From Escherichia phage vB_EcoM_ESCO49, in sequence record OM386663.1: a stretch of 64,000 bases of DNA, one strand, 5' to 3'. The position numbers were made by a program, and so were the translations under genes. Below the pieces are notes generated by a model. It did no database searches, was not told the DNA's origin, and worked only from the letters and a program-made list of their open reading frames with translations. Within the stretch, counting starts at the first letter, position 1; every line of letters begins with the position of its first letter. Below, in pieces: positions 1-57,141 of this stretch.

Positions 1-61
1 AAGATGGTGAGAATACCCATAAAGAATATTAACACCATCTTAACAATCAGTCAACAAGGGA

Positions 62-2413
62 TTAAGCAGTTCTTACCCAAGCCATCAGCTTATAGAACTG
101 GTTAGTAACACTAAATGCTGAACCAGAACCTGTACCGCCAGTGTTACCGCTTACTGTATGGGTGTGAGCACCAATACCAACACTGTGAGCATGGTTACCA
201 TTTGATGCAGCAGTACCAGAGATTGTGTGGGTGTGAGCACCAGCAGAATCAGTGTAACCCGGTCCTGTACCGATTTTACCACCACCACCACCAGAATAGT
301 GTGTAGAGTTCTGACCAATCCATGAGATAGCGTGGTTGTGGTTACCAGCAGATGCAGCAGAACCACTTACAGTGTGGGTGTGAGCACCAGTCGTGTTAGT
401 GTTTTTTGTTCCGTAGTCAAACGATGAGGTAGTCGCAGAGAAACTATGAGTGTGTGAAGGTAAGTTTCCAACTGCTAACGTAACAGAATCTGAACCACCT
501 GTTGTAGCAACATCTGAACCGTTTGCTGCTGCAATTCTGATAGTTCTACCAACACCGTTGTTCAGATACGTCCAAGTTAGACCAGGCAGTGCTGTATTAG
601 GGTCAACATTACTGTTAAACCACGTTACAATACCTACTGGATAGATTTTGTTAAGGTCTGTAGAGTCACTTACTGCCTGTGCAATTTTCTGGTCAGTTTC
701 TGCTTTAGTGTATGCACCAAGCTCTGAAGGTGTTGGCTTCTGTGCTTCTGTGTAAATCTTAGACCACTTAGCTTCAAAGCCTTTACTATCTACAGATGTT
801 CTGTACCACATCCCACCGTTCTTATACTGGAACTTTAATTGCGCACAGGCAGTAGAAGAGTTAACCCCCTGATACATTTGAAACACAAGTGCTGTGTAAT
901 CAGCATTTGTTGAGGTTACATTATATAAGCCTGTTTTAGCGTTCCATGCCACACCATCTGCATTCTGCTCTGTAGCTTCTCCTGTAGAACCTGCAACCAT
1001 GAATCTCTGATTAGCTGCTGCCTGAGTGAAGTATCTAGCATCTAAGTTAGACCAATCAGATGGTTGAACTTGACCAGTAATTCTAACAGTTTTATTCAGC
1101 AAGAAATCATCTTGCATATAAATCGTAGTTAAAGTTCTGTCGTTGTGGATAATAAGCCTTGTTGGGTTGTCTCTTTCCCCGCTACCAATGTACCATCTTC
1201 TCGCATTATCAGCATTATGACCAGCAATGTATAGCTCATTATCTTGTGTGGTGTTCTTTAGCCGTAACAGTGAGCCATTCTGGTTGATAACTTGCGCAGA
1301 CCTGAAAGTGTTTACATCGCTTAGCTTAGCAAGATTGCTCAAAGTAGCTGCTGGAATGTATCTAGAGTCAATGTTAGCCCAATCGGAAGGTTGTACTTGA
1401 CCATCAATTTGAACTGTTTTGCTCATGGTAATGGTGTTACCTAGTGAGACTTGTGTTTTTGTTAGATAGTTATAGATTTTTAAAATGTTCTCATCGCCGT
1501 CATTACCAATGTACCACTTATAATCCCCATCTGACTTTCTTGCTCGGATATATAAAGAGGGGGCAGTGTCCACATTTTGCAGAGTGATGGCTTCAGCATT
1601 CTTCTTAGCAACAAAATTAGTGAAAGTATTAGTGCCAATAAAAGTGTTATTCGCAGCTAACTGCGCAAACCTCTGATTAGCAACTGTCTGAGTAAAGTAT
1701 CTAGCATCTAAGTTAGAGAAGTCCGAAGGTTGAACTTGACCAGTGATTTGAATTGATTTATTCACAGAGATTAGGTTAGCTAAAATCGCTACGTATGCAC
1801 CAGATTTAACGTTTTTTAAAACAAGGTTGTCTGTGTCTCTATTATCATTACCTAGATACCATCTGTTAGTGCCATCTGCATCTTGACCACGAATATAGAG
1901 TGGCATCCCTTGTGTGATATTCTTAAAAATAAGGGCTTCATTGTCAGAGAGAATAGCTTGAGTACCGCTAAAGGTGTTATTTGCAGCTAATCTTGAGTAC
2001 CTTGCATCATTCTCTTCATTAGTTCTCATCCCAAGTTCATTAGGGCTTGGCTTATTAAGAGTATGATAAACAGTTGCAGCCCTTGAAGCATCTGCAATAG
2101 TTAGTCTAAGGCCGTTTGCGTTAATTTTAAAAGTCTTTAAAACATCCCCCATAGTAATCTCAGAAGAGCCTGTAGGGTCAAAGACTGCCTTACCACCATA
2201 AAGTAACTTAACAATCCCTAAGTCACCCGTCATAGTGCTACCAGCAATCTGAACAAATCTTTCTAGTTTAAAAGATGCTAAGAAGTCTTGATAGGTCATT
2301 CGACGGTCTTCATCACCCAGCATCTCAGGTCTCTTTTTAACCCTGACATGAAGAAGGTCGTCTGAACGAATTGTATCGATTGAGTTTAATCCACTCAACT
2401 TGTAATCTGCCAT
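62..2413 (-). CDS. tail fibre protein (long)
   Basis: 783 aa; three copies of an ITGQVQPSD[WF]SNLDARYF-type motif; C-terminal Gly/His-rich HxH repeats (GAHTHT, GNHNHA); last gene of the tail module. Confidence 0.7.
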   Translation of the reverse strand: MADYKLSGLNSIDTIRSDDLLHVRVKKRPEMLGDEDRRMTYQDFLASFKLERFVQIAGSTMTGDLGIVKLLYGGKAVFDPTGSSEITMGDVLKTFKINANGLRLTIADASRAATVYHTLNKPSPNELGMRTNEENDARYSRLAANNTFSGTQAILSDNEALIFKNITQGMPLYIRGQDADGTNRWYLGNDNRDTDNLVLKNVKSGAYVAILANLISVNKSIQITGQVQPSDFSNLDARYFTQTVANQRFAQLAANNTFIGTNTFTNFVAKKNAEAITLQNVDTAPSLYIRARKSDGDYKWYIGNDGDENILKIYNYLTKTQVSLGNTITMSKTVQIDGQVQPSDWANIDSRYIPAATLSNLAKLSDVNTFRSAQVINQNGSLLRLKNTTQDNELYIAGHNADNARRWYIGSGERDNPTRLIIHNDRTLTTIYMQDDFLLNKTVRITGQVQPSDWSNLDARYFTQAAANQRFMVAGSTGEATEQNADGVAWNAKTGLYNVTSTNADYTALVFQMYQGVNSSTACAQLKFQYKNGGMWYRTSVDSKGFEAKWSKIYTEAQKPTPSELGAYTKAETDQKIAQAVSDSTDLNKIYPVGIVTWFNSNVDPNTALPGLTWTYLNNGVGRTIRIAAANGSDVATTGGSDSVTLAVGNLPSHTHSFSATTSSFDYGTKNTNTTGAHTHTVSGSAASAGNHNHAISWIGQNSTHYSGGGGGKIGTGPGYTDSAGAHTHTISGTAASNGNHAHSVGIGAHTHTVSGNTGGTGSGSAFSVTNQFYKLMAWVRTA

Positions 2414-2425
2414 TATAAATTTTCC

Positions 2426-2451
2426 TCTTAAAAGGGGCTATACAGCCCCTG
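2426..2451 (-). terminator. hairpin AGGGGCT-n4-AGCCCCT followed by U-run on minus-strand RNA, between the two fibre genes
   Basis: 7 bp perfect stem at 2433-2450 with A-run 2427-2433 on plus strand. Confidence 0.5.
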
Positions 2452-2459
2452 TAAAGAAA

Positions 2460-3608
2460 TTAAGCTGTTCTCTGCCATACATACAATACGAAGGACGGCT
2501 GTTCAACGCTAAATGCTTGACCAGAACCAGTTGTGCCAGTTGTGCCAGAGTGCGAATGCTCACCTGCTCCGGTTACTGTTACTGTTGCTGAGTGGTTGTG
2601 GGAACCAATTGCAACAGAATGGCTGTGAGCACCAATCTCAACTGTGTGATTATGCGCACCAATTGCTACAGAGTGAGTGTGGTTGTTAGCTGTTGTCAGC
2701 GTAGCTCTTGGGTCATAGCTTGCCCCCTCAACTGATAAACCTCTCCAACCACCATCAGCATAACCACGATTAATGAATGTTGTTTGTGTTAAACCCGCAG
2801 CACTGGTTGTTCTGTTACCATAGTCATAGGTAGATACAGTCTTTGTTCCATAGTCAAACGTTGTAGTCCCTTTAGTACCGTAGTCAAAAGCATTGATAGA
2901 GACCGTTGCACCGTGTGTGTGACCACCACCAGTGACGTATACTGAGTGAGTATGTGCAGGAATGTTGTTAACTGTCAGTGCAGTAGTCTGCGAACCAAAC
3001 GTTGAACCAACTGGCCTAGAATCACTATCATAACCTACAAGTGCTCTTCCTCTTGAAACTAACTCCCAAGTACCTCCACAAATTAAATATGTAGAAGGGT
3101 TTGCAGGATTCATAGAGAGATGGATAGTACCTACTGGATAAGAAGCCTGAACAGCCTTGTACAAGTTATTTACTGCTCTTGCTGTAGCATACTTATCTGC
3201 ATCCTCATTATAAAGGTTAGATGTCACCCAGTTCTGAACATTACTTAACCCAACCTGTGCCTTAGTGGTGTTGTGTGGGTTACTCTTATCATCAATATGC
3301 TGTTGAATAAGATTATTAACCTCTTCTGAAGACATAATCTGTAGATTTGCTCTTGCCTCAGCTACACTAACAATGTCTGATAAGTTATTTTCAGCAACTA
3401 ACTGGAGAGCATTAATAACGTTATCTAAACCAATTTGTGTCTTAGTAACACCATGAGGGTTATTTCTTAGGCTTGAGTGTGGAGCAAGTAATTGCTCAAG
3501 AGTACACCTCTTATCCTCGATACCCTGTTTAAGATGGAAGATATCACTAAGGTCAATTGGTAAGGCTGCTTGAGGCAAGGCACTAATTTGAATTTCACCT
3601 ACTGCCAT
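2460..3608 (-). CDS. tail fibre protein (short)
   Basis: 382 aa; NPH..TK.Q.GL.NV phage fibre repeat motif twice; FDYGTK repeats; C-terminal HxH repeats (GAHNHTVEIGAHSHSVAIGSHNH); C-terminus similar to the long fibre. Confidence 0.7.
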   Translation of the reverse strand: MAVGEIQISALPQAALPIDLSDIFHLKQGIEDKRCTLEQLLAPHSSLRNNPHGVTKTQIGLDNVINALQLVAENNLSDIVSVAEARANLQIMSSEEVNNLIQQHIDDKSNPHNTTKAQVGLSNVQNWVTSNLYNEDADKYATARAVNNLYKAVQASYPVGTIHLSMNPANPSTYLICGGTWELVSRGRALVGYDSDSRPVGSTFGSQTTALTVNNIPAHTHSVYVTGGGHTHGATVSINAFDYGTKGTTTFDYGTKTVSTYDYGNRTTSAAGLTQTTFINRGYADGGWRGLSVEGASYDPRATLTTANNHTHSVAIGAHNHTVEIGAHSHSVAIGSHNHSATVTVTGAGEHSHSGTTGTTGSGQAFSVEQPSFVLYVWQRTA

Positions 3609-3610
3609 TA

Positions 3611-11641
<8,031 letters not shown>

Positions 11642-23192: not shown

Positions 23193-23355
23193 GGAGAAAC
23201 CACAATGTACGTCAGAGACATACTGTATAAGTCTTCCTATAAAGTATAACTCTGTAAAAAAGCCCTGTCTAAAAATACTCTTCGGTAGCGAAAGGAAGAA
23301 TACTTATAGCAGGGCATTATTATTATTTTAATTGAGAGAGAGTAAAATAACTTGG

Positions 23356-23428
23356 AGAATCCGAAGGGACTTGAACCCTTATAAACCTGTTTTGCAGACA
23401 GGCACATATCCATTTCTGTCACGGATTC
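23356..23428 (-). tRNA. tRNA-Cys (GCA)
   Basis: acceptor 7 bp, T-arm AAGGG-TTCAAGT-CCCTT, anticodon stem CCTGT/ACAGG, loop CUGCAAA. Confidence 0.7.
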
Positions 23429-23436
23429 GAAATTGG

Positions 23437-23525
23437 GGGAAGATACCAGACTTGAACTGGTACACCGATTTCTCAGCTACTGGCAGTTTAGCAAACTGCT
23501 CCCTTACCTTTAGGGTTAATCTTCC
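23437..23525 (-). tRNA. tRNA-Ser (GCU), long variable arm
   Basis: 89 nt; T-arm, anticodon stem GCAGT/ACTGC, plus-strand loop TTAGCAA. Confidence 0.65.
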
Positions 23526-23526
23526 A

Positions 23527-24309
23527 TTATCTCTGTAATGCGCTCTTCATTTCTGGTGTTGCAATAGTATCAATCACACCAGTTTTACAAGCATCATCAA
23601 ACCAGTCTGGTAAGATACCTGCTAAGAACCCATTGATATTCGTTTTAAGGTACTCTGCAATAAGGGCAGCTTCTTCTTCAATCATCTGCACAACTTCATC
23701 TGCATAAGCTGTAATCTTTGAGATACCTTCATTAATCTTACTAACAGCCTGATTAGCTAAATCAGAAACAGTCTCAAGACCCTTATCAATAGCGTCTTGT
23801 AAGTCACTTAACACACCATTAACACTGTCTAGTGTGCTGTTAATCATGTCAATAGCTTGCTGACCATACTCTGTAGCAACACCCATAATACCACTAAATG
23901 GTGTACAACCAACTTGTTCTCCTGCTGCACCCATAACATTGGAGTATCCCTTTGCTACCTGCATACGTGATGAAAACTCATCAATAGACTTTTGACCGTA
24001 GTCTGTTAGGGTCTTAGTAGTTGCTGTAGTGCTTGTAAGGCTTGTTGTAAAGCTGTTTAGAAGGACTGTTGTGAGTCCAGCAGCAACAAGCTTCTCCTTC
24101 ATTGTAGGGTCTGTTACAGAGCTAATAGAGCTTACAAGTGATGTAGAGGCAGCTACGGTTCCACCGAGAACTGCTGCACCAGTAATAAGTGGGTTAGAAA
24201 ACCCTCTACCGGTTTTTAAGAGATTAAAAATCTCCTTACCTTGTTCTGTCATCTCTTTCATTAAGCACCTTTGAAATTGGTACTCCATATCGGATTCGAA
24301 CCGATACAT
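23527..24309 (-). CDS. hypothetical protein
   Basis: 260 aa; Ser/Thr/Ala-rich middle; embedded in tRNA region. Confidence 0.4.
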   Translation of the reverse strand: MYRFESDMEYQFQRCLMKEMTEQGKEIFNLLKTGRGFSNPLITGAAVLGGTVAASTSLVSSISSVTDPTMKEKLVAAGLTTVLLNSFTTSLTSTTATTKTLTDYGQKSIDEFSSRMQVAKGYSNVMGAAGEQVGCTPFSGIMGVATEYGQQAIDMINSTLDSVNGVLSDLQDAIDKGLETVSDLANQAVSKINEGISKITAYADEVVQMIEEEAALIAEYLKTNINGFLAGILPDWFDDACKTGVIDTIATPEMKSALQR

Positions 24310-24356
24310 AACACAGATTTTAAGTCTGGCCTCTCTGCCAATTGGAGTAATGGAGC
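24281..24356 (-). tRNA. tRNA, anticodon read as UAA (Leu-type), standard length
   Basis: acceptor GCUCCAU/AUGGAGU (G1-U72), T-arm ATCGG-TTCGAAT-CCGAT, 4 bp anticodon stem, loop CUUAAAA, A73. Confidence 0.5.
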
Positions 24357-24362
24357 ATTGGC

Positions 24363-24434
24363 TGGGGATGTTGGAATTGAACCAACTTCTTCGATTTCAA
24401 AGACCGAGGTTTTAACCTTGTAAACTAATCCCCT
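24363..24434 (-). tRNA. tRNA-Gln (UUG)
   Basis: T-loop TTCAATT; anticodon stem with one G-U; plus-strand loop TTCAAAG. Confidence 0.6.
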
Positions 24435-24442
24435 TTAAATCT

Positions 24443-25000
24443 TTACTTTCTCAGTGGATGAATAAAGAATGCCAACATAACTCTTTCCCTTGAGAATGCT
24501 CTTTCTTCTGGGACAACACTTTTTAGTTTCCATCCAATATAAATTCTCCAGTAAAACTGTTTACCAAAGATTTTAATTGATGGGATAAAAGCGAATAATC
24601 CCCAAGCATTGCTATTCCACATTAGGAGATAACCAGTCTGATTATCTTCAGGGTCAGAACTTACGCTGATATTACCTTTCCACTTAGTAACATCTTTTAC
24701 ATCTCTTCCTAATACATGGTAAGAGAAGTTATAAGCTTTGTTTCTCCAGAGCCATCCAACTCTCTGCATGTAGACACCCAGCTTACCAATCTTTCTAATC
24801 TTAGCCCATCTTTTAACGTGGCCTTCATCACCATCAATCGGGTTGTCATAGGTCTCCATCCATCTGAATCCAAAAGGTAGATGCCCTTTCTTCTCACTGT
24901 AGAATGGAACCACGAAAGGTGCTAAGATGACTGCTAGGGTTGCTGCAAATGGTTCTAGTAAAGCTAGGAAAATCCATGAAGCATACTTCAAATATCTCAT
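24443..25000 (-). CDS. hypothetical membrane protein
   Basis: 185 aa; hydrophobic N-terminus; between tRNA genes. Confidence 0.4.
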   Translation of the reverse strand: MRYLKYASWIFLALLEPFAATLAVILAPFVVPFYSEKKGHLPFGFRWMETYDNPIDGDEGHVKRWAKIRKIGKLGVYMQRVGWLWRNKAYNFSYHVLGRDVKDVTKWKGNISVSSDPEDNQTGYLLMWNSNAWGLFAFIPSIKIFGKQFYWRIYIGWKLKSVVPEERAFSRERVMLAFFIHPLRK

Positions 25001-25022
25001 CTAAATAGCCTCTTAAAATTGG

Positions 25023-25098
25023 TGTTCCAAGACGGATTCGAACCGTCACTAATACAAGGTTTGAGCTTGCATCCTCTGCCAATTGGGATACTGGAACA
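25023..25098 (-). tRNA. tRNA, anticodon read as CAA (Leu-type), standard length
   Basis: T-arm GACGG-TTCGAAT-CCGTC perfect; acceptor 7 bp with one G-U; loop CUCAAAC; A73. Confidence 0.5.
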
Positions 25099-25101
25099 TG
25101 G

Positions 25102-25173
25102 TACTCACTAAAGGACTTGAACCTTTTTCTTCATCTTGTAAGGGTGATGTTTTACCATATAAACTAAGCGAGT
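25102..25173 (-). tRNA. tRNA-Val (UAC), tentative
   Basis: T-arm AAAGG-TTCAAGT-CCTTT; D-arm GUUU-AUAUGGUA-AAAC; anticodon stem with one mismatch; plus loop TTGTAAG. Confidence 0.5.
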
Positions 25174-25271
25174 GTGAAAGAGGTCTGAAGTTGTGCCGCT
25201 AACTCAACTCCGTGGAATTTGTTACGGTCTTCAGTTGACACCAGCGGTCTTTCACTTGACCTCTGAATTGG

Positions 25272-25345
25272 TGCTGCTCACAGGACTCGAACCTGCATTT
25301 CCATCCTTACAAGGGATGTGTAATAGCCAATTATACGAAAGCAGC
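25272..25345 (-). tRNA. tRNA-Thr (UGU)
   Basis: perfect anticodon stem CATCC/GGATG, loop CUUGUAA; T-arm and acceptor present. Confidence 0.7.
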
Positions 25346-25354
25346 ATTATTTGG

Positions 25355-25426
25355 AGCATCCAGAGGGAATCGAACCCTCAACCTCAGTTTGGAAGACTGT
25401 AATTTTCCCGTTTAAACTATGGATGC
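25355..25426 (-). tRNA. tRNA-Gly (UCC)
   Basis: T-arm GAGGG-TTCGATT-CCCTC; acceptor perfect; loop CUUCCAA. Confidence 0.6.
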
Positions 25427-25435
25427 ACTAATTGG

Positions 25436-25508
25436 TGGAGAAGCAGGGAATTGAACCCTGTACTTAAGTTTGCAAAACTTATGTTTTAACCATGTAAACT
25501 ACATCCCC
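25436..25508 (-). tRNA. tRNA-Ala (UGC)
   Basis: anticodon stem TAAGT/ACTTA, loop UUUGCAA; acceptor GGGGAUG with G3-U70. Confidence 0.6.
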
Positions 25509-25517
25509 AATGTTTGG

Positions 25518-25590
25518 TACAGGTGGAGGGAATTGAACCCATCGTCTTACTGATTAAGAGTCAGCCGCATAACCATTTTGCTACACCTGC
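25518..25590 (-). tRNA. tRNA-Lys (CUU)
   Basis: plus loop TTAAGAG; acceptor 7 bp; T-loop TTCAATT with short GGG/CCC stem. Confidence 0.55.
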
Positions 25591-25600
25591 ATTAATTTGG

Positions 25601-25674
25601 TACACCTAGAGAGATTCGAACTCACACTGAGCAGATTCTAAGTCTGCTGCCTCTACCAGTTGGGCTATAGGTGC
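25601..25674 (-). tRNA. tRNA, anticodon read as UAG (Leu-type), standard length
   Basis: perfect anticodon stem GCAGA/TCTGC, loop CUUAGAA; acceptor 7 bp (G1-U72); D-loop with GG; A73; 5 nt variable loop. Confidence 0.55.
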
Positions 25675-25750
25675 ATTAAACCTTTTTAGAGAACTTCTAA
25701 GAACCTAAGCAACAAGGTTCCACAACAAGCCGTAATAACCTTAGAAGCCC

Positions 25751-25773
25751 TCTAAAAAGACCTAAAAAGGTCT
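25751..25773 (-). terminator. weak terminator-like hairpin (AGACC-n6-GGTCT plus U-run)
   Basis: 5 bp stem followed by UUUUAG on minus RNA. Confidence 0.3.
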
Positions 25774-25930
25774 TTGCATAGTCTTGTTTAATCCGGTGAC
25801 TAGAACCTTTGGAGAGCTTGATATTATCTCTTCTCCGTGACACCTGCTAGGTGCTTTATGAGTGTGTACGACAATACACGCGGGATACCAAAGCAACACC
25901 CTAATGAAGCTTGGCTTTAAATCTTATTAG

Positions 25931-26018
25931 GCGGTAAGTAAAGGAGTCGAACCCTCACCGTATCTCTACAGTGGCAACTGTTTTCAAGACAGTTTGGCTA
26001 CCATTAGCCGCTACCTAC
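25931..26018 (-). tRNA. tRNA-Ser (UGA), long variable arm
   Basis: 88 nt; anticodon stem AACTGT/ACAGTT 6 bp, plus loop TTTCAAG; acceptor 7 bp incl. one G-U. Confidence 0.55.
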
Positions 26019-26034
26019 CCCTAATAAGACTTTG

Positions 26035-26114
26035 GCATGGGACGGAGGAGTTGAACCCCTTTGAAACGGTGTTGGAAGCCGTTGCTCATGCCTTAGAGTC
26101 TTAACATCGTCCCA
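26035..26114 (-). tRNA. tRNA-like gene, identity unresolved (aberrant core)
   Basis: perfect 7 bp acceptor ATGGGAC/GTCCCAT, encoded CCA, T-loop TTCAACT; internal stem AACGG/CCGTT with 9 nt loop CUUCCAACA; extra nucleotides before D-arm. Confidence 0.4.
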
Positions 26115-26261
26115 TACTATAATTCGAAGCTTACCGTATTATCTCAACACTGTAAAGCCCCTTCTCAGATTATTTACATGTTCTGGAAAACATGAGATAC
26201 AGACCACCTCCCTACAGGAAGACCCGCTTAGGTCGTCTAAGTAATCTGCTAACTAAATTGG

Positions 26262-26340
26262 TCGAGGCGGCAGGACTCGAACCCGCATACTCCACTTACT
26301 CGGTTAACGTCTGTTTAGAAGACAGATGAGATACGCCCCG
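26262..26340 (-). tRNA. tRNA-like gene, identity unresolved (anticodon-like loop CUUCUAA, Arg-UCU-like, displaced)
   Basis: acceptor CGGGGCG/CGCCUCG all paired, T-arm GCAGG-TTCGAGT-CCCGC; perfect TCTGT/ACAGA hairpin sits where D-arm is expected. Confidence 0.35.
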
Positions 26341-26680
26341 TAATTATCTTTAAAGACTCTCTTAGAAAGCCCTTAAAGATGCCCACCTTATTAATCATAC
26401 CGTGGGCTAGTACGCCAAATTCTTTGATGAGGGATTGGAAGACCTCACTGGTGTTTAGCCTATCAAGCTACTGCCAGAAAAACATTGTCGTTTGCATTTA
26501 TTTTAAATTTGCAAAATAGACGCTACGCAACGAAAACTATTCAGAATATGTACAACAAATTTCCCCACATTGTGTTACGTCTAACGCTCATGTATTGGTG
26601 TTTGAATTATACATATTATGAAGTATTTTAGTTACTATAAAGTGGTCACATCTCAATGTCAACAACTTTATTGAAATTGG

Positions 26681-26753
26681 TACTGGTAGGTGGAATCGAA
26701 CCACCGACGTTCCCTTATCAGGGGAGTGTTATAACCTTCTTAACTATACCAGC
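26681..26753 (-). tRNA. tRNA-Ile (GAU)
   Basis: T-arm GGTGG-TTCGATT-CCACC perfect; plus loop TTATCAG. Confidence 0.6.
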
Positions 26754-26757
26754 TTGG

Positions 26758-26831
26758 AGGTTCAGATGGGAATCGAACCCACATTCATAGGGCTTATGAG
26801 ACCCTTGCATTACCTTATCTGCGACTGAACC
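26758..26831 (-). tRNA. tRNA with CAU anticodon (Met or Ile2)
   Basis: perfect acceptor GGTTCAG/CTGAACC; plus loop TTATGAG. Confidence 0.55.
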
Positions 26832-26838
26832 ATTTTGG

Positions 26839-37710: not shown

Positions 37711-39360
37711 GTGAAAATTACGAAATTTATAATTTTTATAAAATTTTATCGGTTGTCCCAACCTCTGGGTCACCATCATACGTGAATAAAATATCTATCC
37801 TTCTTAACAACCTTCTTAATCTTACTCTCTATATAGTTATATAGTACTATATAGTATCTTAGTAACTATCTAGTGGTCTTAATAGCCTCTCTGTATAACC
37901 CTTCTAACAAGCCTTCTAACAAGCCCTCTAAACACTCTTCTAACAAGCCTTCTTAATAACCTATACAATCACCTTAACCATCCCTCTATACCCTCTTAGA
38001 AGCTCCTATACACCTCTTAATCTCTATGTTACCTATGATACCCTCTATAGGTGTTCACTAGGCACTACTAAGCCTCTATATAGACTGTTTTAACAAACTT
38101 AACAGGAATATCTTTACAGACCTTATCTCACAAGGCCTAACACGGTACTAACAAGGTATCTTATAAACCTGTTTATGCCTGTATTTTAGAAAGACTGTAT
38201 AGGTAATTATTCAGAATTTTAATTTTTTTTATAAAATAGGACTGTCAAGTCATTTTTTAGGGTCTTTGAAGGAACTCAAAAATATCTGTCTAGGATGTAT
38301 ATCTGCTTGGTAGCCCTTAACAGCCCTGTAACATCCCCTTTGCAAAATTTTAAAATATCATTAACAAACTCTTAACAACTCTCTCAAGCTCTTAACATCT
38401 CTCCAAAGGTCTTAACAAATTCTTAATAGTTTTAACAAGAGGGTAACAAATTTCTAACAAGTGCTGAAAAGGCTTTACAGAATCTTAACAGATGATTAAC
38501 AAGAGCTAACAAGTTAATTTTTAAGGGTTATTTTGTTAAGATAATTAACAAGTTCCTAACAAGTATTTAACCTTTTTAACAAGCTATTAACATGGTCACT
38601 ACTCTTTTCTTATCGTTCCCTTTCTCTCTTAGTGATTCTCTAAACATACCTTTTAAAAGCTCTCTATAGCTCCTTGTAAGCTCTTTTAAGCCTCTTCCTA
38701 GTAATTACACCCCAACTATACAGACACCTCTTTATAGAGCTTTACAGGAGCTTTTAAGGCTATGTCAAAGACTCTTACAAGGCTTTTACATGGTATTAAC
38801 AGAGATTTAACAAGGGGCTAACAAGTTGCTAACAAGCATAACTATGTAGGGATTGTTAAGAATTTGTTAAAAAGATGTTAAAGGGGCTAGCATTTACGTA
38901 ACTTTTACGTAACTTTTGAGTAACTTTATAGCCCCTATAACATACTTTTAAGACACTATCAAGCCCTTTTTAGTAGTTCACGAGATACTAGTCAGCCTAT
39001 AAGCTTATACCCTTATAAGGTTCTTTTAAGCCTCTAGAAAGCTTTATAAAGGGCTTTTAAGGGTGAGGTAATGCAATCCCTTAAGTTATATTGATAAGGC
39101 TGTTATAGGGCTTTATAGGGCGTTTTAGGGGTTGCCCTTCCCTTTCGGGTTATGGGCTTGTATTTAAGGGAAAGATTAGTTGATTTGATAAAAGGCTATA
39201 GAATAAGCTATAGAGTTATTGCTTTTTAAGGTATGGGATAGAGTCTATCGAACCAGTGGGGAGATTCTGGAAAGGTGAGGGAAAGGGTTGTATAAGGATT
39301 CGATAGACGTAAAAAAGCCCCATTTAAGGGGCTGTATAAAGGTATCTGGGGCTATTTAGC
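37711..39360. repeat. 1.65 kb ORF-free, G-poor region with at least 14 exact TAACAAG iterons plus CTATAG-rich and ACGTAACTTTT repeats; candidate origin or regulatory array
   Basis: no ORF of 60 aa or more on either strand; motif counted by eye (3 near 37905-37950, 1 near 38147, 7 in 38430-38580, 3 in 38800-38850). Confidence 0.6.
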
Positions 39361-39622: not shown

Positions 39623-39716
39623 TTTTAGATTCTCCAGTTTAGGAAGTAGTTTAAGGACTTTATTTAGTGGGGAGGTCATACCCTCCCCGTTGATTGACAA
39701 TTTACAGATTTTTGAT
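39623..39716 (-). promoter_or_regulatory. early promoter/hairpin/RBS cassette, type A
   Basis: minus strand: TTGACG-N17-TAAATT, hairpin GGGGAGG-n7-CCTCCCC, RBS GGAGA, ATG. Confidence 0.55.
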
Positions 39717-40232
39717 TGTATCGTCAATGTCTTTTTCAATATCTTTTAAAGTTTTTTCTAAGTTCTTGATATTGAAAGATAAGCCCTCTCCCAATGTCTT
39801 AGAGTAAACATCAGGGCGCAAGTCATGCAGTTCGATTTCTTCCACTTCAAAGAGACTAACCAGTTCACCGCTTACATTGTAAGCCATTGAAACAGTATTT
39901 ACAGGGGCTTTGTAAAACTTGTTCAACGACTTGATAGACCGTTCATAAGCCATTTTATAACCGTTTAAAAGGTTTTTAACGTGATTGCGAACGTTTTTAC
40001 ACTCATCTAAGTAAATCCCTAAGAATAACGGCAATAACTCCGCTATAGCTTGCATAAAGTGAGAGACCACAACGGTTGCAACATTACGACGATGAACGTA
40101 ATAAGCCCCTTTTCCTGATTTAGTGATAGTTGCAAAGTGTACACCATTGCAGCGAAATTCGTAGGTATCTTTAACAGGTTTAGACATTACAGCATTTGAA
40201 CGAATGAAGTTGATAGCTTTGAACTTGTTCAT
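39702..40232 (-). CDS. hypothetical early protein
   Basis: 177 aa from MNKFKAINF; ORF-track N-terminus MTSPLNKVL is read-through of the cassette. Confidence 0.45.
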   Translation of the reverse strand: MNKFKAINFIRSNAVMSKPVKDTYEFRCNGVHFATITKSGKGAYYVHRRNVATVVVSHFMQAIAELLPLFLGIYLDECKNVRNHVKNLLNGYKMAYERSIKSLNKFYKAPVNTVSMAYNVSGELVSLFEVEEIELHDLRPDVYSKTLGEGLSFNIKNLEKTLKDIEKDIDDTIKNL

Positions 40233-40320
40233 TTTGAATCTCCAGTTTAGGACTTTATTTAGCGGGGAGGTCATCCCTCCCGTTGATTAGTACTTTACTT
40301 GTTTTGATAGCTGATTGCAA
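40233..40320 (-). promoter_or_regulatory. early promoter/hairpin/RBS cassette, type A variant
   Basis: TTGCAA-N17-TAAAGT, hairpin GGGAGGG-n5-CCTCCCC, RBS. Confidence 0.5.
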
Positions 40321-40448
40321 GCAATTTTTTAAGTTTATCTATAAAGAGTCTTTTAAGTGAATCCCTTTTAGATAAACCCCCTCGAACAAATCTACCAATG
40401 TCAAGGGGTGTTGTCAATACTTTTTGAAAGTTTTTTGTAAGTTATTGA

Positions 40449-40790
40449 TTAACTGATAAATATTTTTTCAGGCTTTACATAGCTGATACGTTGGATTTTT
40501 AGTAGGTCATTCCAGATTAATGCGGCAATATGAGAATAGCCGGATTCACGTAGAAGCTTCATTGTTTTACTTCTTGTTTCAAATCGGTTTACGTAGTACT
40601 CACTATTTAAAACCGTTTTATTGCCTTCATTGTCCACATGGATAATCTGCATTACTTGAAAGGGGCTTACATCCTCGCCTTTATTCCATTGTTCAAAGTA
40701 TTTTAGGCACTGCATAGGTGACATCTTATCACTAACCTGCGTTGACCAAGATGCGCCAGCTTTATCAGCAATTACGGTTACATAAGCCAT
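40449..40790 (-). CDS. hypothetical early protein
   Basis: 113 aa. Confidence 0.45.
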   Translation of the reverse strand: MAYVTVIADKAGASWSTQVSDKMSPMQCLKYFEQWNKGEDVSPFQVMQIIHVDNEGNKTVLNSEYYVNRFETRSKTMKLLRESGYSHIAALIWNDLLKIQRISYVKPEKIFIS

Positions 40791-40882
40791 TTTTGAATCT
40801 CCAGTTTAGGGTTTTATTTAGTGGGGAGGTCATACCCTCCCCGTTGATTGACAATTTACAGATTTTTATCCGGCTTGTCTAG
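40791..40882 (-). promoter_or_regulatory. early promoter/hairpin/RBS cassette, type A
   Basis: TAGACA-N17-TAAATT, same hairpin and RBS as 39623-39716. Confidence 0.55.
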
Positions 40883-41112
40883 TCTTTTTCAATGATAATT
40901 TCATCTTGGCCGTCAACACTGTCAAAATAGATTCCGTCGTCATCTTCTGTCTTAAAGTAGCATTTTATATCATCACTTGCGGGATAGTCTTGTCTTGCTA
41001 TCTGGCAAACTTGAATAGCATTTTCTTTACTTCCTGAAAACTCCTCAAGCCCTTTAAAGTCGCATGAATACCCATTACAGGTGGAAAGGATGAGATAAAC
41101 GGTTATAAGCAT
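40879..41112 (-). CDS. hypothetical secreted protein or lipoprotein
   Basis: 77 aa; N-terminal hydrophobic segment ending ILSTC; acidic C-terminus; preceded by a different hairpin GGCCC-n5-GGGCC. Confidence 0.4.
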   Translation of the reverse strand: MLITVYLILSTCNGYSCDFKGLEEFSGSKENAIQVCQIARQDYPASDDIKCYFKTEDDDGIYFDSVDGQDEIIIEKD

Positions 41113-41175
41113 GATTTAAGCCCCCTAAATGGCCCTGTACGGGCCTTAAGTTGGAAATTGGTGTCTTTGTATGGT

Positions 41176-41739
41176 TTAGCCTAAAAAGTCGCTCATATTG
41201 CGTTCTGTGAGGCTGTTGGTAATTTTGTCCAGTAGGTCACAATACACAGAGCTATCACCGCTATTCTGTACAATTTTTGCAATACTCAACAAATCATCGT
41301 CAATATAGCCCAAATTGCGGTTAGTTGTATCAGGTACAAAGAAAGGCGCATACATCGCACTAAAATTCGCGGAGTGGATACCAACAATCCAATTTTTATC
41401 AAAGTAACCTGTAAAGCTGGCGATGTCGCTCATATTGTCACAAGAATAATCGTCCTCAAGTTCTTCCTCTGGGATATCCATCTCAATTACAATCACTTCC
41501 TGCGTTTCCATTTGGAAAGCTGCCGTAATAAGCCCCGACTCTAAAGCATTTTGAATGCAGCGTTCACGGATGTAAGAAGCTTCTTCATCTTCCAGGCATT
41601 CCGTTTTGATAATCTTATCCATCGGGTAAACGTAAAAACAATCATCCATGTAAGAGCAGTTCCAGATACCCTCCGGCTTGTCGCCACCTTTAAGCAGGTT
41701 TACAAAGTTTTTCAGAGTAGTGCCGTGATAGCATTTCAT
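41176..41739 (-). CDS. hypothetical early protein
   Basis: 187 aa; acidic. Confidence 0.45.
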   Translation of the reverse strand: MKCYHGTTLKNFVNLLKGGDKPEGIWNCSYMDDCFYVYPMDKIIKTECLEDEEASYIRERCIQNALESGLITAAFQMETQEVIVIEMDIPEEELEDDYSCDNMSDIASFTGYFDKNWIVGIHSANFSAMYAPFFVPDTTNRNLGYIDDDLLSIAKIVQNSGDSSVYCDLLDKITNSLTERNMSDFLG

Positions 41740-41838
41740 TTTTGAATCTCCAGTTTAGGATTTAGTGGTAAAGCTCTTTATCTGGGGCTTACTATATCGA
41801 ACTATAAGCCCCTTGTAAAGTACTTTATTTGTTATTTT
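41740..41838 (-). promoter_or_regulatory. early promoter/hairpin/RBS cassette, type B
   Basis: TTTACA-N17-TATAGT with hairpin GGGGCTTA-n13-TAAGCCCC spanning spacer and -10; shared 3' part CCACTAAATCCTAAACTGGAGATTCAAAA-ATG. Confidence 0.55.
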
Positions 41839-42028
41839 TTACAACTTTTAAAACTGCAAGATAGCCTAAGCAATAGGAATCACCAAAGAGAGTCCTACCC
41901 ATGAAAGAATCTTCTTTAATATCCTTTGCAGTGACAGTTTTTTCTACGCCGTGGGAAAGGACTACATCACCAACTTTAATGTCTTTGATGTGTGTAGTTT
42001 CAATGGTTAAACCGTTAATAATAGCCAT
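41825..42028 (-). CDS. hypothetical early protein
   Basis: 67 aa. Confidence 0.4.
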   Translation of the reverse strand: MAIINGLTIETTHIKDIKVGDVVLSHGVEKTVTAKDIKEDSFMGRTLFGDSYCLGYLAVLKVVKNNK

Positions 42029-42122
42029 TTTTGAATCTCCAGTTTAGGGTTTTATTTAGTGGGGAGGTCATACCCTCCCCGTTGATGTGTAATTTAATCT
42101 ATCTAAAAACCAGTGTCAACAA
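42029..42122 (-). promoter_or_regulatory. early promoter/hairpin/RBS cassette, type A
   Basis: TTGACA-N17-TAAATT then hairpin GGGGAGG-n7-CCTCCCC then RBS. Confidence 0.6.
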
Positions 42123-42127
42123 AATTT

Positions 42128-42532
42128 TTAGAGTTCTGCATAAATTGCATCACAGACATCACGAAAATCGTGATTTGTCAAATTACGCTGTAACCAAGTG
42201 GCGAAAAAATCAGCGATTGCATAATTGGCATCATACTCGACGGATAGCCATACTTTAACAGCAAATCGAAACATCTTTAAATCAAGCTCTTTATTCATTA
42301 CCTTTGATTTGCCTAACATGTCGGACATTTCATATTGTGCGCCGTCTAGCGTGATACCTGCTGCAACGTCAGCCAATGAACTTTTTACGTTTTTAACGTC
42401 TAAAATAACGCTTTGAATCTTTCCGATAATGTTGTGCAATGTTTCATCTGGCGCTGCTGATGTCATCACATTAATCCGGTTGACGGTCAAACGTGCTTTT
42501 AAGATAGATAATTCACGGTTATTAATAGCCAT
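42128..42532 (-). CDS. hypothetical early protein
   Basis: 134 aa. Confidence 0.45.
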   Translation of the reverse strand: MAINNRELSILKARLTVNRINVMTSAAPDETLHNIIGKIQSVILDVKNVKSSLADVAAGITLDGAQYEMSDMLGKSKVMNKELDLKMFRFAVKVWLSVEYDANYAIADFFATWLQRNLTNHDFRDVCDAIYAEL

Positions 42533-42617
42533 TTTTGAATCTCCAATTTAGGATTTAGTGGTAAAGCTCTTTATCTGGGGCTTACTATATCGAACTATAA
42601 GCCCCTTGTAAAGTACT
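42533..42617 (-). promoter_or_regulatory. early promoter/hairpin/RBS cassette, type B
   Basis: near-identical to 41740-41838. Confidence 0.55.
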
Positions 42618-42890
42618 TTAAACTAAATGCAGCTTTTTGCCTTTTACCATGATGTAACTTGATGCGCTATTGCTACAAACATCCTGATAAATTCTGCGCA
42701 AACGCCCTTTATAGTGTACTTTCCAGCTGGTTGGAATCTTTTTACCGTATCCCGTAGCAGTTTTTTGGAATCCTGCAAGTTGCCAATTCAAAATATGCTG
42801 TTCAGCTTGTAAATCCTCAAAGTGCATTATGCCGTTCACATAGTGGCGTAGGGTTACGTTTAAGGTGCGACCGTTGTTAGTAGTATACAT
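42618..42890 (-). CDS. hypothetical early protein
   Basis: 90 aa from MYTTNNGRTL; ORF-track extension is cassette read-through. Confidence 0.45.
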   Translation of the reverse strand: MYTTNNGRTLNVTLRHYVNGIMHFEDLQAEQHILNWQLAGFQKTATGYGKKIPTSWKVHYKGRLRRIYQDVCSNSASSYIMVKGKKLHLV

Positions 42891-42978
42891 TTTTGAATCT
42901 CCTAGTTTAAGGGTTTTATTTAGTGGGGGGTTATCGCCCCCGTTGATGTGCAATTTAATCTATCTAAAAACCAGTGTC
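42891..42978 (-). promoter_or_regulatory. early promoter/hairpin/RBS cassette, type A variant
   Basis: TTGACA-N17-TAAATT; hairpin GGGGGCGATAACCCCCC. Confidence 0.55.
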
Positions 42979-43309
42979 AAGCATTTTGTTTTCGTTTGCT
43001 CATTTCTTGAGCAATTACAGCGTAGTAGTCTTTTAAGTCACTGGTATTTAAAGCATTTATCAGGGAATTATAATCATCAACTAACTGAAAATCATCTTTG
43101 AAGATGTCACTAATCTGGTATGTTCTCGCTTTAAATCTGAAGCTCATCTCTAGCCGCTTTATTTGCTCATCACTTAAACGCTCCAGGAAGCTCATTACAA
43201 GGCTATTATTAACCTGTTGTGTGATAGCCTTATCTGCTAAATTATAGGCTTTATATGCCTTATACAGCGCGAAAATGGCTATAATGGCGGTGACGCCGGT
43301 CATTAACAT
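42977..43309 (-). CDS. hypothetical membrane protein
   Basis: 110 aa; N-terminal TM segment; start overlaps stop of a 26-codon upstream micro-ORF. Confidence 0.45.
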   Translation of the reverse strand: MLMTGVTAIIAIFALYKAYKAYNLADKAITQQVNNSLVMSFLERLSDEQIKRLEMSFRFKARTYQISDIFKDDFQLVDDYNSLINALNTSDLKDYYAVIAQEMSKRKQNA

Positions 43310-43383
43310 GGTGTTTCCTCTTTGAAATCAATTTTATTAAGTGACTTGCTTAGATTTTCACGGACCTTATTTGATAATTTCAT

Positions 43384-43470
43384 TTTTTGAATCTCCAGTT
43401 TAGGATTTAGTGGTAAAGCTCTTTATCTGGGGCTATCTTATCAGCTTGATAACCCCGTGTAAAAAGGTCT
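43384..43470 (-). promoter_or_regulatory. early promoter/hairpin/RBS cassette, type B variant
   Basis: TTTACA-N17-TAAGAT; cassette ATG opens the 26-codon micro-ORF. Confidence 0.5.
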
Positions 43471-43472
43471 AT

Positions 43473-43985
43473 TTAGTCCTTAAAGATATTCATCACTGAA
43501 TCTTTTAATGCTTCCAATTGCTCCAGTACTTCAGATTCTGCGCCTGAATTGCTCACTTCCTCTTTTAGTCTATCCTCTAAATCAACGCCGTCACTATAAC
43601 ACCAATCAAAAGCATAACCAAGATAAAAACTTTCTAAAACCGTTTTGCCGTTTACATCTACAACTTTCGCGGCAAGGATGTATTCTGAAGCCTCTAAATC
43701 TCTTTCTAGTTCTTCCTGTAAGCTGACATAAGCCTCTTTTGATGGATTTTCCCGGCCCTGTTTTGCATAGTCACTTGAAAGCTGTTTAAGGCTATAATTT
43801 AAAGGGATTGCATATTTAAAGGCATTATGACGATAGTTGGGGTTTTTAATAGTCACGCCGCCTTGATGGTCGTCTGTAAACTCCCAATCAGCAAGATTAT
43901 GGCTTGACTCGTAGCAGTTTACCGCTTCATAGATGATTGAAAATTTTTCTTTTACAACTTCAAAAGTAGCGTCTACAGTTTTCAT
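43473..43985 (-). CDS. hypothetical early protein
   Basis: 170 aa; acidic C-terminal half. Confidence 0.45.
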   Translation of the reverse strand: MKTVDATFEVVKEKFSIIYEAVNCYESSHNLADWEFTDDHQGGVTIKNPNYRHNAFKYAIPLNYSLKQLSSDYAKQGRENPSKEAYVSLQEELERDLEASEYILAAKVVDVNGKTVLESFYLGYAFDWCYSDGVDLEDRLKEEVSNSGAESEVLEQLEALKDSVMNIFKD

Positions 43986-44071
43986 TTTAGAATCTCCAGT
44001 TTAGGGGTTTAGTGATAAAGCTCTTTATCTGGGGCTTACTATATCGAACTATAAGCCCCTTGTAAAGTACT
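43986..44071 (-). promoter_or_regulatory. early promoter/hairpin/RBS cassette, type B
   Basis: same module as 41740-41838. Confidence 0.55.
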
Positions 44072-44455
44072 TTATTTGTTAATTTTGAAAATTGTCACAT
44101 AGCCATCGCTCCCGATAATTTGAGATACTCCAGCTTTTTCTACTGAATAGCCCATATTCTCAAGATGATAAACAGCATCATCATAACCATATGCGCCGCC
44201 CTGATAACGTCTCTTATCACATCTTATCAGGTTTTTACCACGTCCTGCAAGTGCATTTAGTACGGCTTTTTCACTTGAAAGCGTACCATCTAACATTGTT
44301 GCCGTGTAGTGGTTGATTCTGTTCCCGTTAATATCATACTTAAAATTGAACGAGTGAACAACAACTATTTTATCGTTAAATTTTTCATCAAGCGCCTTCT
44401 CTAATACATTACGGAAATTTTCTTTATTGATGAATTTAGGTGCACGATATGCCAT
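44072..44455 (-). CDS. hypothetical early protein
   Basis: 127 aa. Confidence 0.45.
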   Translation of the reverse strand: MAYRAPKFINKENFRNVLEKALDEKFNDKIVVVHSFNFKYDINGNRINHYTATMLDGTLSSEKAVLNALAGRGKNLIRCDKRRYQGGAYGYDDAVYHLENMGYSVEKAGVSQIIGSDGYVTIFKINK

Positions 44456-44543
44456 TTTTGAATCTCCTAGTTTAAGGTTGTTGATAAAGCTCTTTATCTG
44501 GGGCTTAAGATATCAACTTTTAAGCCCCTTGTAAAGTACTTTA
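44456..44543 (-). promoter_or_regulatory. early promoter/hairpin/RBS cassette, type B variant
   Basis: TTTACA-N17-TATCTT; hairpin GGGGCTTAA-n11-TTAAGCCCC. Confidence 0.5.
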
Positions 44544-56280: not shown

Positions 56281-56678
56281 ATAACCTTTCTACGCTTTAT
56301 CTGGATAATGTTCTTTTTACAATATTCGATAGCTTCATCTATTGACCCAAAACTTTCCTTCTCCACAAAGAAGCGAACTTCACCATCTTGTATCTTTTGT
56401 TCTTCGGCTGTTGGCTCTTCAAGTATTTTACTTGATACTTCTCTGTTAATCTGCATTACATACTCGAAAGAGTTCTTCTTGTACCCAACTATTTTAATGT
56501 AACCCCTCTGGCGAAGACGATTGAACCGAGTTGACTTGTTTGTCTTGGATACATCTGGAAATTCCTTGTCATGGATACTACGTATCTGTGAGCAAGTAAA
56601 TGTTTTATCATAACCAAACTCATTATACAGGACTTTTAACAGTTCAATCATAACATCACTCCCAAATAACTTTTGCAT
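56271..56678 (-). CDS. hypothetical protein, paralog family member A1
   Basis: start placed at MQKLFGSD by alignment with A2; C-terminal ...EAIEYCKKNIIQIKRRKVIWE. Confidence 0.5.
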   Translation of the reverse strand: MQKLFGSDVMIELLKVLYNEFGYDKTFTCSQIRSIHDKEFPDVSKTNKSTRFNRLRQRGYIKIVGYKKNSFEYVMQINREVSSKILEEPTAEEQKIQDGEVRFFVEKESFGSIDEAIEYCKKNIIQIKRRKVIWE

Positions 56679-57120: not shown

Positions 57121-57141
57121 AGTGTATTCCTAATCAAATGT

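Follow-up and report, generated by a model that had tools for sequence, protein, structure and literature searches.

Two Felixounavirus tail fibre types with gp37-type tips: the likely identity of the fibre genes of Escherichia phage vB_EcoM_ESCO49

The fibre region of Escherichia phage vB_EcoM_ESCO49 very probably contains the genes for both fibres of a Felixounavirus (Felix O1-like myophage), a short tail fibre (STF) of 382 aa and a long tail fibre (LTF) of 783 aa, both with gp37-type tips. Relating the HxH tips of both fibres to the metal-binding T4 long-fibre tip is correct but ordinary. Gp37-like tips on both fibres are already known from Bas63 (Escherichia phage JohannRWettstein, MZ501086), since a 2025 cryo-EM paper describes both of its fibres in these terms, with collar-needle-head tips carrying 7 (STF) and 6 (LTF) di-histidine motifs (Sci Adv 2025, PMC12609058). 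The Bas63 virion carries both fibre types, their tips being seen at domain level by cryo-EM (PMC12609058). The window analyzed here (the whole stretch of 64,000 nucleotides) represents one further STF/LTF allele pair. Its small additions are that the "extra" LTF histidine of Bas63 is not conserved and that the HxH layers of the STF family range from 6 to 11. Felix O1-type phages serve Salmonella diagnostics and are studied for the biocontrol of Salmonella and E. coli; host recognition by these phages was still termed elusive in 2021.

Identification of the fibre genes and their neighbors

A sequence-only reading of this DNA had placed two tail fibre genes in positions 62-3608. Two open reading frames with exactly these limits were found, both on the minus strand, and all the peptides that it had quoted are present in their products (Table 1). 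Pfam, PHROGs and the GenBank annotation all class both genes as tail fibres. The LTF matches the GenBank "tail fibers protein" of Escherichia phage vB_EcoM_ESCO49 at 100% identity, and the STF is 97.1% identical to Bas63 gp26 and 99.2% identical to the ESCO45 protein. At the DNA level the matches comprised 240 phage records, nearly all of them Felix O1-like.

Table 1. Features of the ESCO49 fibre region (positions in the window)
Feature	Positions	Strand	Evidence or content
LTF gene, 783 aa, Bas63 gp27 orthologue	62..2413	-	ORF; full-length match to PHROG 4277 "tail fiber" (E=0)
LTF receptor-binding tip, predicted	62..643	-	aa ~591-783; similarity to 2XGF
Fifth rod module of LTF	683..1003	-	aa ~471-577; Pfam gp37_C E=1.6e-18
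Three tandem ~110-aa rod modules of LTF	1004..1984	-	aa 144-253, 254-365, 366-470; Pfam gp37_trimer
STF-LTF spacer, 46 nt	2414..2459	-	G+C hairpin then UUUU; LTF ribosome-binding site
STF gene, 382 aa, Bas63 gp26 orthologue	2460..3608	-	ORF; PHROG 2097 E=1.2e-126
STF receptor-binding tip, predicted	2460..3140	-	aa ~157-382; Gp10_C and similarity to 2XGF
LTF platform protein, 100 aa, Bas63 gp25 orthologue	3611..3913	-	96.0% identical; PHROG 4141 E=2.3e-61
Baseplate wedge 1, 285 aa	3913..4770	-	97.2% identical to Bas63 gp24
Baseplate wedge 2, 489 aa	4773..6242	-	98.4% identical to Bas63 gp23

The neighborhood is that of Bas63, a phage of the same genus. The gene order is the same (wedge 2, wedge 1, platform, STF, LTF), as are the lengths of the products of gp23-gp27 (489, 285, 100, 382 and 783/784 aa), the 46-nt spacer between STF and LTF, and the HxH counts of 7 (STF) and 6 (LTF). 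The platform protein has the length and position of Bas63 gp25, described as T4 gp9-like (PMC12609058), and the wedge region (3913..6242) gives a Baseplate_J match in Pfam (E=2.7e-15). In Bas63, the platform and the STF attach to wedges 1 and 2 (PMC12609058). Downstream of the LTF gene, the small ORFs of Bas63 and ESCO45 have PHROG matches of unknown function only.

The STF-LTF spacer contains a hairpin, GGGGCUGUAUAGCCCC, with a folding energy of -16.2 kcal/mol. It was missed by a consensus terminator scan because only four U follow it. The hairpin is conserved, being identical in ESCO45 and changed by one loop base in Bas63.

T4 has a gp38-type chaperone gene, whereas no gp38 homologue was found beside the ESCO49 fibre genes or anywhere in the 64-kb window, nor were Mu U/U' assembly proteins found in it. 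With neither a gp38 nor a Mu U homologue in the window, folding of the ESCO49 fibres must differ from that of T4 in some respect. T4 also differs in building its long fibre of gp34-gp37, whereas ESCO49 uses one polypeptide per fibre.

The rod of the long tail fibre

The LTF is laid out as an N-terminal baseplate-binding region followed by five rod modules and a gp37-like tip. Three tandem modules were recovered by a self-HMM (E~1e-54 to 1e-57) and correspond to three gp37_trimer stretches in Pfam (E=2.2e-53). Their pairwise identity is 36-47%, and direct repeats in their DNA are spaced 327 and 339 nt apart. Each of the three ends in I[TD]GQVQPSD[WF].N.D.RY, and the internal ITGQVQPSD-type repeats are the conserved ends of these modules. 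Three copies of ITGQVQPSD[WF]SNLDARYF had been proposed at the outset; two are exact (223-240 and 445-462), while the third is a variant, IDGQVQPSDWANIDSRYI (336-353). Degenerate connector motifs at aa 122-139 and 560-577 fit the five beta-helix domains reported for the Bas63 LTF.

The fifth module relates the rod to Mu/P2/P1-type fibres. LTF residues 470-577 are homologous to a module of the Mu tail fibre S/S' (PDB 8JU3, E=1.9e-17), and tblastn returned matches to Mu, D108, P2 and P1-like fibres. As the Mu S/S' fibre is invertible, the common module lends something to the idea that the tips are switchable, i.e. that a programmed DNA rearrangement (Mu/P1-type inversion, a diversity-generating retroelement, or recombination between HxH repeats) alternates them, and so do short DNA repeats common to both tips (58 nt at 74% and 22 nt at 91%). 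These repeats are, however, too short and diverged for efficient homologous exchange. Only one rod module is common to the two systems; the invertible segment, the Gin invertase and the U-type protein are absent from the ESCO49 window. No inverted repeats of at least 18 nt were detected in positions 1-4000 and none of at least 40 nt in the whole 64-kb window, a tblastn search of the window with D108 Gin gave no invertase match at E<=1, and the window holds no second copy of the tip DNA and no template repeat. The annotation of Bas63 likewise contains no recombinase or reverse transcriptase. The two genes are arranged in tandem and co-oriented, and their products are assembled together, both proteins being present on one Bas63 virion (PMC12609058). 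Switchable specificity, which had been put forward beside dual specificity, is not supported; tip switching by DNA rearrangement is largely refuted, and we consider it a most improbable reading.

Two related tips with HxH needles

The early suggestion of His-rich tips held up well. The 382-aa and 783-aa proteins contain 7 and 6 HxH motifs, and these counts were never reached by shuffling either the whole proteins or the last 170 residues (20,000 shuffles each; shuffle means 0.35-1.07). The resemblance between the two C-termini is also real, but it had been understated as covering the last ~12 residues: the homology extends over ~200 residues, with LTF 591-783 and STF 157-382 sharing 31% identity (BLASTP, E=2e-15). 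A three-way alignment with T4 gp37 retains the collar YP[VI]G, FDYGTK, the HxH columns and a terminal R.A.

The LTF collar contains YPVG and ends in KLMAWVRTA. Between them lies a needle of three ascending and three descending HxH motifs (H654/656, 678/680, 692/694, 727/729, 741/743 and 750/752), separated by a Gly-rich head loop of ~26 aa (aa ~697-722), which is the least conserved stretch of the tip among 121 homologues. Against the crystal structure of the T4 gp37 tip (2XGF) the LTF tip scores E=7.7e-17, and all six motifs align column-for-column with gp37 H883/885, 915/917, 929/931, 966/968, 980/982 and 989/991. The histidines are kept in 118-121 of the 121 homologues, and the middle residue varies. 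A seventh gp37 motif (H998/1000) is absent from the LTF, and the gp37 head is much larger than either ESCO49 head.

In the STF, the needle consists of two ascending and five descending motifs (H219/221, 230/232, 310/312, 319/321, 328/330, 337/339 and 351/353), and three FDYGTK-like repeats also lie in the tip, as does a variable distal segment (aa ~255-307), whose residues 261-300 are only 14-25% conserved among 72 homologues. The 9-aa HxHxVxIGx period of the protein is reflected in the DNA by a 27-nt tandem period (2590-2681). The similarity to 2XGF has E=1.4e-12 for the single sequence and 2.2e-29 for a family profile; four motifs align with those of gp37, and the other three lie in inserted segments. 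Across the 72 homologues, which reach down to 39% identity, three motifs (H219/221, 230/232 and 337/339) are invariant; the remaining four are retained in most homologues, or wherever the segment is present, again with a varying middle residue.

Both collars match Gp10_C (PF21939) and PDB 2FKK/5HX2, and resemble the C-terminal domain of T4 gp10 and the related gp12 collar. The Pfam match is clear for the STF (E=3.9e-18, 67.2 bits, cutoff 27); the LTF remains under that cutoff at 22.8 bits, and its collar aligns with the STF collar by BLASTP. T4 gp10 differs in being without a long HxH needle, and PDB searches with both fibres gave no direct sequence match to gp12. By sequence, the collar-needle-head layout, the in-register HxH motifs, FDYGTK and the C-terminal strand leading back to the collar are all as in gp37, and this strand is predicted to return and complete a gp10/gp12-type collar domain. 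An AlphaFold2 model of the STF (66-sequence alignment), a monomer that cannot represent the intertwined trimer, had a mean pLDDT of 63, with 82-92 in the collar and 40-70 in the needle and head. Foldseek with this monomer model against the PDB returned weak gp10 matches only (best E=1.8e-3, TM ~0.2), and 2XGF was not among them, so the needle gains no separate structural backing from this model.

Compared with Bas63 gp27, the LTF is 74.6% identical overall. The rod (aa 161-540) has diverged, and the N-terminus and the tip (559-783) are ~78-100% identical (the tip by 40-residue windows). The extra LTF histidine of Bas63 (HHxH, H692) is Asn691 in ESCO49, and His occupies this position in only 25 of the 121 homologues; a compensating ligand conserved at this site is therefore unlikely.

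Metal coordination by the needles

That the HxH repeats are of the gp37 type had been suggested from the letters alone, and the alignments confirm it: judged by sequence, the repeats are homologous to the iron-coordinating needle of T4 gp37 (2XGF), beyond what shared composition would give. The gp37 motifs are known to coordinate iron (Bartual et al. 2010, cited by PMC12609058 and PMC11705849), and both citing papers place the ions buried on the threefold axis of the needle. In ESCO49, the conserved histidine pairs, the free middle residue and the alignment with the gp37 Fe motifs form the pattern expected of metal ligands. Homology thus suggests that both ESCO49 fibres bind metal. In Bas63, the fibre density is without resolved side chains, so that the histidine-metal geometry there rests on homology and AlphaFold models.

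The number of motifs is variable, which leaves some room for the HxH motif being a metal-free structural repeat, maintained by packing or hydrogen bonding in a narrow needle, or a site for Zn2+/Ni2+ rather than Fe2+. A 2003 study by Thomassen et al. is said to have found zinc at the HxH site of T4 gp12, which would favor another metal. We nevertheless regard these readings as improbable, both histidines being strictly conserved with a free middle residue and a one-to-one alignment with the gp37 Fe motifs. The metal stack itself appears to be no fixed requirement, since STF homologues carry from 6 to 11 motifs and the ESCO49 STF allele is without two ascending motifs that are present in most relatives.

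For HxH-bearing fibres a "Ferrojan horse" has also been proposed (PMC11705849), in which the iron of the stack is a ligand for a host siderophore receptor rather than a structural rivet. The ESCO49 motifs are indeed homologous to iron-binding ones. Set against this are the burial of the gp37 ions, the reliance of the genus on the LPS core and not on TonB-dependent receptors, and the concentration of variation at the apex rather than in the HxH stack; moreover, the published LPS-only dependence of Bas63 implies that it would plate normally on mutants in tonB or a siderophore receptor. The chance that such a mechanism operates here seems to us very slight, and a structural role of the metal is preferred.

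Proposed roles of the two fibres

Each fibre would be a homotrimer docked on the baseplate by its N-terminus, the STF on wedge 2 and the LTF on the gp25 platform. The C-terminal part of each chain is expected to leave the collar, climb a thin intertwined beta needle, make a small apical head and descend into the collar; the chain would finish there, which would account for the similar ...W.RTA strands that close the two proteins. In each HxH layer the three chains would direct six imidazoles around the threefold axis toward one metal ion (Fe2+ in T4 gp37), and 6 stacked ions in the LTF, or 7 in the STF, would rivet the needle. The variable apex head may then contact the receptor, for this genus the LPS core, on which Bas63 and the Felixounavirus Eifel2 depend (PMC8594841; PMC12892995). 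T4 differs here in using OmpC as a receptor, as opposed to the LPS core only in the genus of ESCO49.

By analogy with T4, the LTF probably makes the first, reversible contact, after which the STF would fix the baseplate before contraction. The position of the Bas63 STF, which lies along the sheath and is not folded under the baseplate (PMC12609058), counts against such a reversible-then-irreversible split. The metal and its identity, the sugar bound by each tip and the order of binding are all matters that we infer. In the PhageMaP preprint, which addresses gene essentiality in Bas63, a search of the main text yielded nothing on the fibre genes.

The dual specificity proposed from the sequence survives only insofar as one virion bears two kinds of fibre, like the long and short fibres of T4; it is better read as such an LTF and STF pair, with a division of roles suggested by the T4 comparison. 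A different reading makes the two fibres independent, parallel receptor-binding devices, each sufficient on different hosts, that widen the host range without acting in sequence. The two heads show no sequence relationship and differ in size (~26 aa in the LTF versus ~50 aa in the STF), and LTF and STF alleles assort independently among relatives: the STF of phage momo is 97.9% identical to that of ESCO49, yet its 843-aa LTF is only 71% identical. A broad host range is known for Felix O1-type phages (PMC8594841). In Bas63, however, the STF is at full occupancy and the LTF is variably released (PMC12609058), which resembles a sensor plus an anchor, and we hold independent use on alternative hosts to be rather unlikely.

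Returning to the LTF and STF pair, we tentatively put forward, as a possibility that we hold less likely than not, that the two tips bind two LPS-core epitopes, both of them required, that reassorting alleles yield a combinatorial host range, and that the spacer hairpin limits the supply of LTF. If this is true, the combinatorial range would span the LTF apex variants and STF needle variants with 7 versus 9 HxH motifs, and the conserved hairpin would provide a sub-stoichiometric supply of LTF, matching the partial LTF occupancy in Bas63. As both fibres carry gp37-type tips whose apexes can be swapped, engineers would graft specificity at the head loops and leave the HxH stack and the collar alone, as already published for Bas63.

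Two adjacent tail fibre genes with gp37-like tips

By DNA similarity, the window groups with Felix O1-like myophages (Ounavirinae/Felixounavirus), its closest matches being Escherichia phages ESCO45 and ESCO56 (~98%). The two tail fibre genes claimed by the sequence-only reading at 62-3608 coincide with two adjacent minus-strand ORFs, both assigned to tail fibres by PHROGs and Pfam. In GenBank, the 'tail fibers protein' of Escherichia phage vB_EcoM_ESCO49 matches the long tail fibre (LTF) with 100% identity. Three further minus-strand ORFs (100, 285 and 489 aa) lie upstream of the fibre genes, and the 489-aa one has a Baseplate_J domain.

Gene order, lengths and spacer are all the same in the felixounavirus Bas63 (MZ501086), with identities of 98.4% for wedge 2, 97.2% for wedge 1, 96.0% for the platform, 97.1% for the short tail fibre (STF) and 74.6% for the LTF. 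In the cryo-EM study of Bas63 (PMC12609058, November 2025), the STF (gp26, 430 A) sits on wedge 2A and carries seven di-histidine motifs, and the LTF (gp27, 630 A) sits on a gp9-like platform, gp25, and carries six; both have gp37-like tips. Since Bas63 shares genes, order and spacer with the window, the observation of HxH fibre tips re-describes a published structure-function picture, and the two-fibre HxH-tip feature is already known from that study.

Features of the fibre region and of the rest of the window (motifs in residue numbers)
Feature	Location	Strand	Details
STF ORF	2460..3608	-	382 aa; adjoins LTF ORF
LTF ORF	62..2413	-	783 aa; 46 nt from STF ORF
STF HxH motifs (n=7)	H219/221, 230/232, 310/312, 319/321, 328/330, 337/339, 351/353		
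LTF HxH motifs (n=6)	H654/656, 678/680, 692/694, 727/729, 741/743, 750/752		
T4 gp37 HxH motifs in aligned fragment (n=7)	883/885, 915/917, 929/931, 966/968, 980/982, 989/991, 998/1000		
Repeat in STF gene	2590-2681		27-nt period, 3.4 copies, 69% matches (Tandem Repeats Finder)
46-nt STF-LTF spacer	2414-2459	-	G+C hairpin GGGGCUGUAUAGCCCC (-16.2 kcal/mol), UUUU, then LTF ribosome-binding site
Just past LTF stop codon	1-61	-	Promoter-like TTGACT-17-TAATAT, TG upstream; hairpin with 9-bp stem
tRNA cluster	23353-27708	-	19 genes (ARAGORN)
tRNA-like match	26262-26340		Weak, Rfam; no ARAGORN call
Ig-domain gene	31366-32499	+	377 aa; three immunoglobulin-like domains = three 206-nt direct repeats
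Phage lysozyme gene	32499-32963	+	Next after Ig-domain gene
Short tandem repeats	37829-38927		Close to gene-orientation change
Intergenic repeat families	39631-44543		74-91 nt, up to 99% identical, 470-1240 nt apart; each with G+C-rich hairpin, e.g. GGGGAGGTCATACCCTCCCC
Duplication	56271-57994	-	~870-nt unit, ~75% identity; two paralogous ORF pairs, 140-154 aa

Homology to the T4 gp37 tip was confirmed for both fibres. Its crystal structure (PDB 2XGF) was matched by the LTF (E=7.7e-17), by the STF (E=1.4e-12) and by a profile built from 66 STF homologues (E=2.2e-29), and the part preceding the needle matched the C-terminal (collar) domain of T4 gp10. In a three-way alignment of LTF, STF and gp37 residues 785-1026, the conserved features are YP[VI]G where the chain enters the collar, FDYGTK, the columns of HxH motifs, and R.A at the very end. 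All six LTF motifs align with the first six of gp37; four of the STF motifs align and three fall within inserted repeats. HxH motifs are the ligands of seven iron ions along the gp37 needle (Bartual et al. 2010, cited in PMC12609058 and PMC11705849). The AlphaFold2 model of the STF, a monomer rather than a trimer, was confident in the collar only, and with it Foldseek gave weak gp10 matches only. The window encodes no assembly factor resembling gp38 or U.

The observed HxH counts were reached in 0 of 20,000 shuffles, whether of the entire protein or just of the His-rich last 170 residues, and every peptide quoted earlier was found in the two proteins. The C-terminal likeness first noticed over 12 residues extends over ~200 (LTF 591-783 versus STF 157-382, 31% identity, E=2e-15); the last residues are similar because the chain returns to the collar. 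The 27-nt period of the STF gene encodes a 9-residue HxHxVxIGx period in the descending needle strand, and T4 gp37 shows the same one.

Three internal repeats had also been reported in the LTF; two are exact copies, but the third has diverged (IDGQVQPSDWANIDSRYI). These repeats close three ~110-aa modules arranged in tandem (pairwise identity 36-47%), which at the DNA level are direct repeats with spacings of 327 and 339 nt and which Pfam reads as three gp37_trimer stretches. Two degenerate connector motifs (aa 122-139 and 560-577) would bring the total to five, so that the sequence suggests an LTF rod of five modules; the Bas63 LTF has five T4 gp34-like beta-helix repeat domains (PMC12609058).

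Conservation of the tips and a probable division of labour

Among 121 LTF homologues, each HxH histidine was kept in 118-121, with a variable middle residue (T/A/S/N), and the apex (aa ~697-722) varied more than any other part of the tip, with at least three unrelated versions. Among 72 STF homologues (identity down to 39%), three HxH motifs were invariant and the others were kept in most homologues or wherever their segment exists; conservation of residues 261-300 was just 14-25%. Judged from these sequences, conserved HxH motifs and a variable apex are the pattern expected of buried ligands under a diversifying receptor-binding apex. Relative to Bas63, LTF identity is ~78-100% at the N-terminus and across the tip, with a diverged rod. 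The extra His of the Bas63 LTF (HHxH), remarked on by its authors, is Asn691 in the window; His occupies this position in only 25 of the 121 homologues.

Comparison of the STF tip (2460-3140) with homologues P0004-P0069 placed the window among carriers of a seven-HxH allele, together with Bas63 and Salmonella phage PC79-13. The majority allele has nine motifs; the window allele lacks its two distal ascending-strand motifs and has in their place one more FDYGTK-like repeat, along with a different distal segment. As HxH number ranges from 6 to 11 in the STF family, both the length of the needle and its count of putative metal sites are modular.

Dual or switchable receptor specificity had been proposed. 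The Bas63 virion bears both fibres at once, which gives the phage two receptor-binding tips, but the switching part was not supported. We found no inverted repeats of at least 18 nt in 1-4000 or of at least 40 nt across the window, and neither a second copy of the tip DNA nor a Gin-type invertase in the window; a programmed switch between tips is therefore very unlikely. Bas63 has no annotated recombinase or reverse transcriptase. Only one rod module (LTF 470-577) is shared with the invertible Mu fibre.

Known Felixounavirus receptors are LPS-core structures: Bas63 fully requires an intact core (PMC8594841), rfaJ and rfaK are loci of resistance to Eifel2 (PMC12892995), and large genetic screens place the genus among LPS/O-polysaccharide binders. 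By analogy with T4, the LTF most likely senses the host first and the STF would then anchor, a split also favoured by the Bas63 authors from variable LTF occupancy (PMC12609058). The two tips may instead act in parallel, widening host range, and LTF and STF alleles do reassort independently among relatives.

Other features of the window

The spacer hairpin, unchanged in ESCO45 and with one loop base different in Bas63, may act as a partial terminator or on mRNA stability, thereby tuning the STF/LTF ratio. Bas63 has the sequence of 1-61 unchanged and, after it, a small ORF with no assigned function and then one of 123 aa. The ESCO45 counterpart of the latter carries a holin annotation, and this order loosely recalls T4 gp37-gp38-holin t.

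Bas63 is annotated with 25 tRNAs, of which those for His, Phe, Asp, Glu and Arg were not detected in the window. The paralogous ORFs of the duplication have no Pfam match. Lying between small genes, the intergenic repeats resemble terminator/promoter cassettes present in several copies. The 377-aa Ig-domain protein is probably a Hoc-like hexamer decoration protein, whose Ig-domain number varies within Felixounavirus (PMC12609058).
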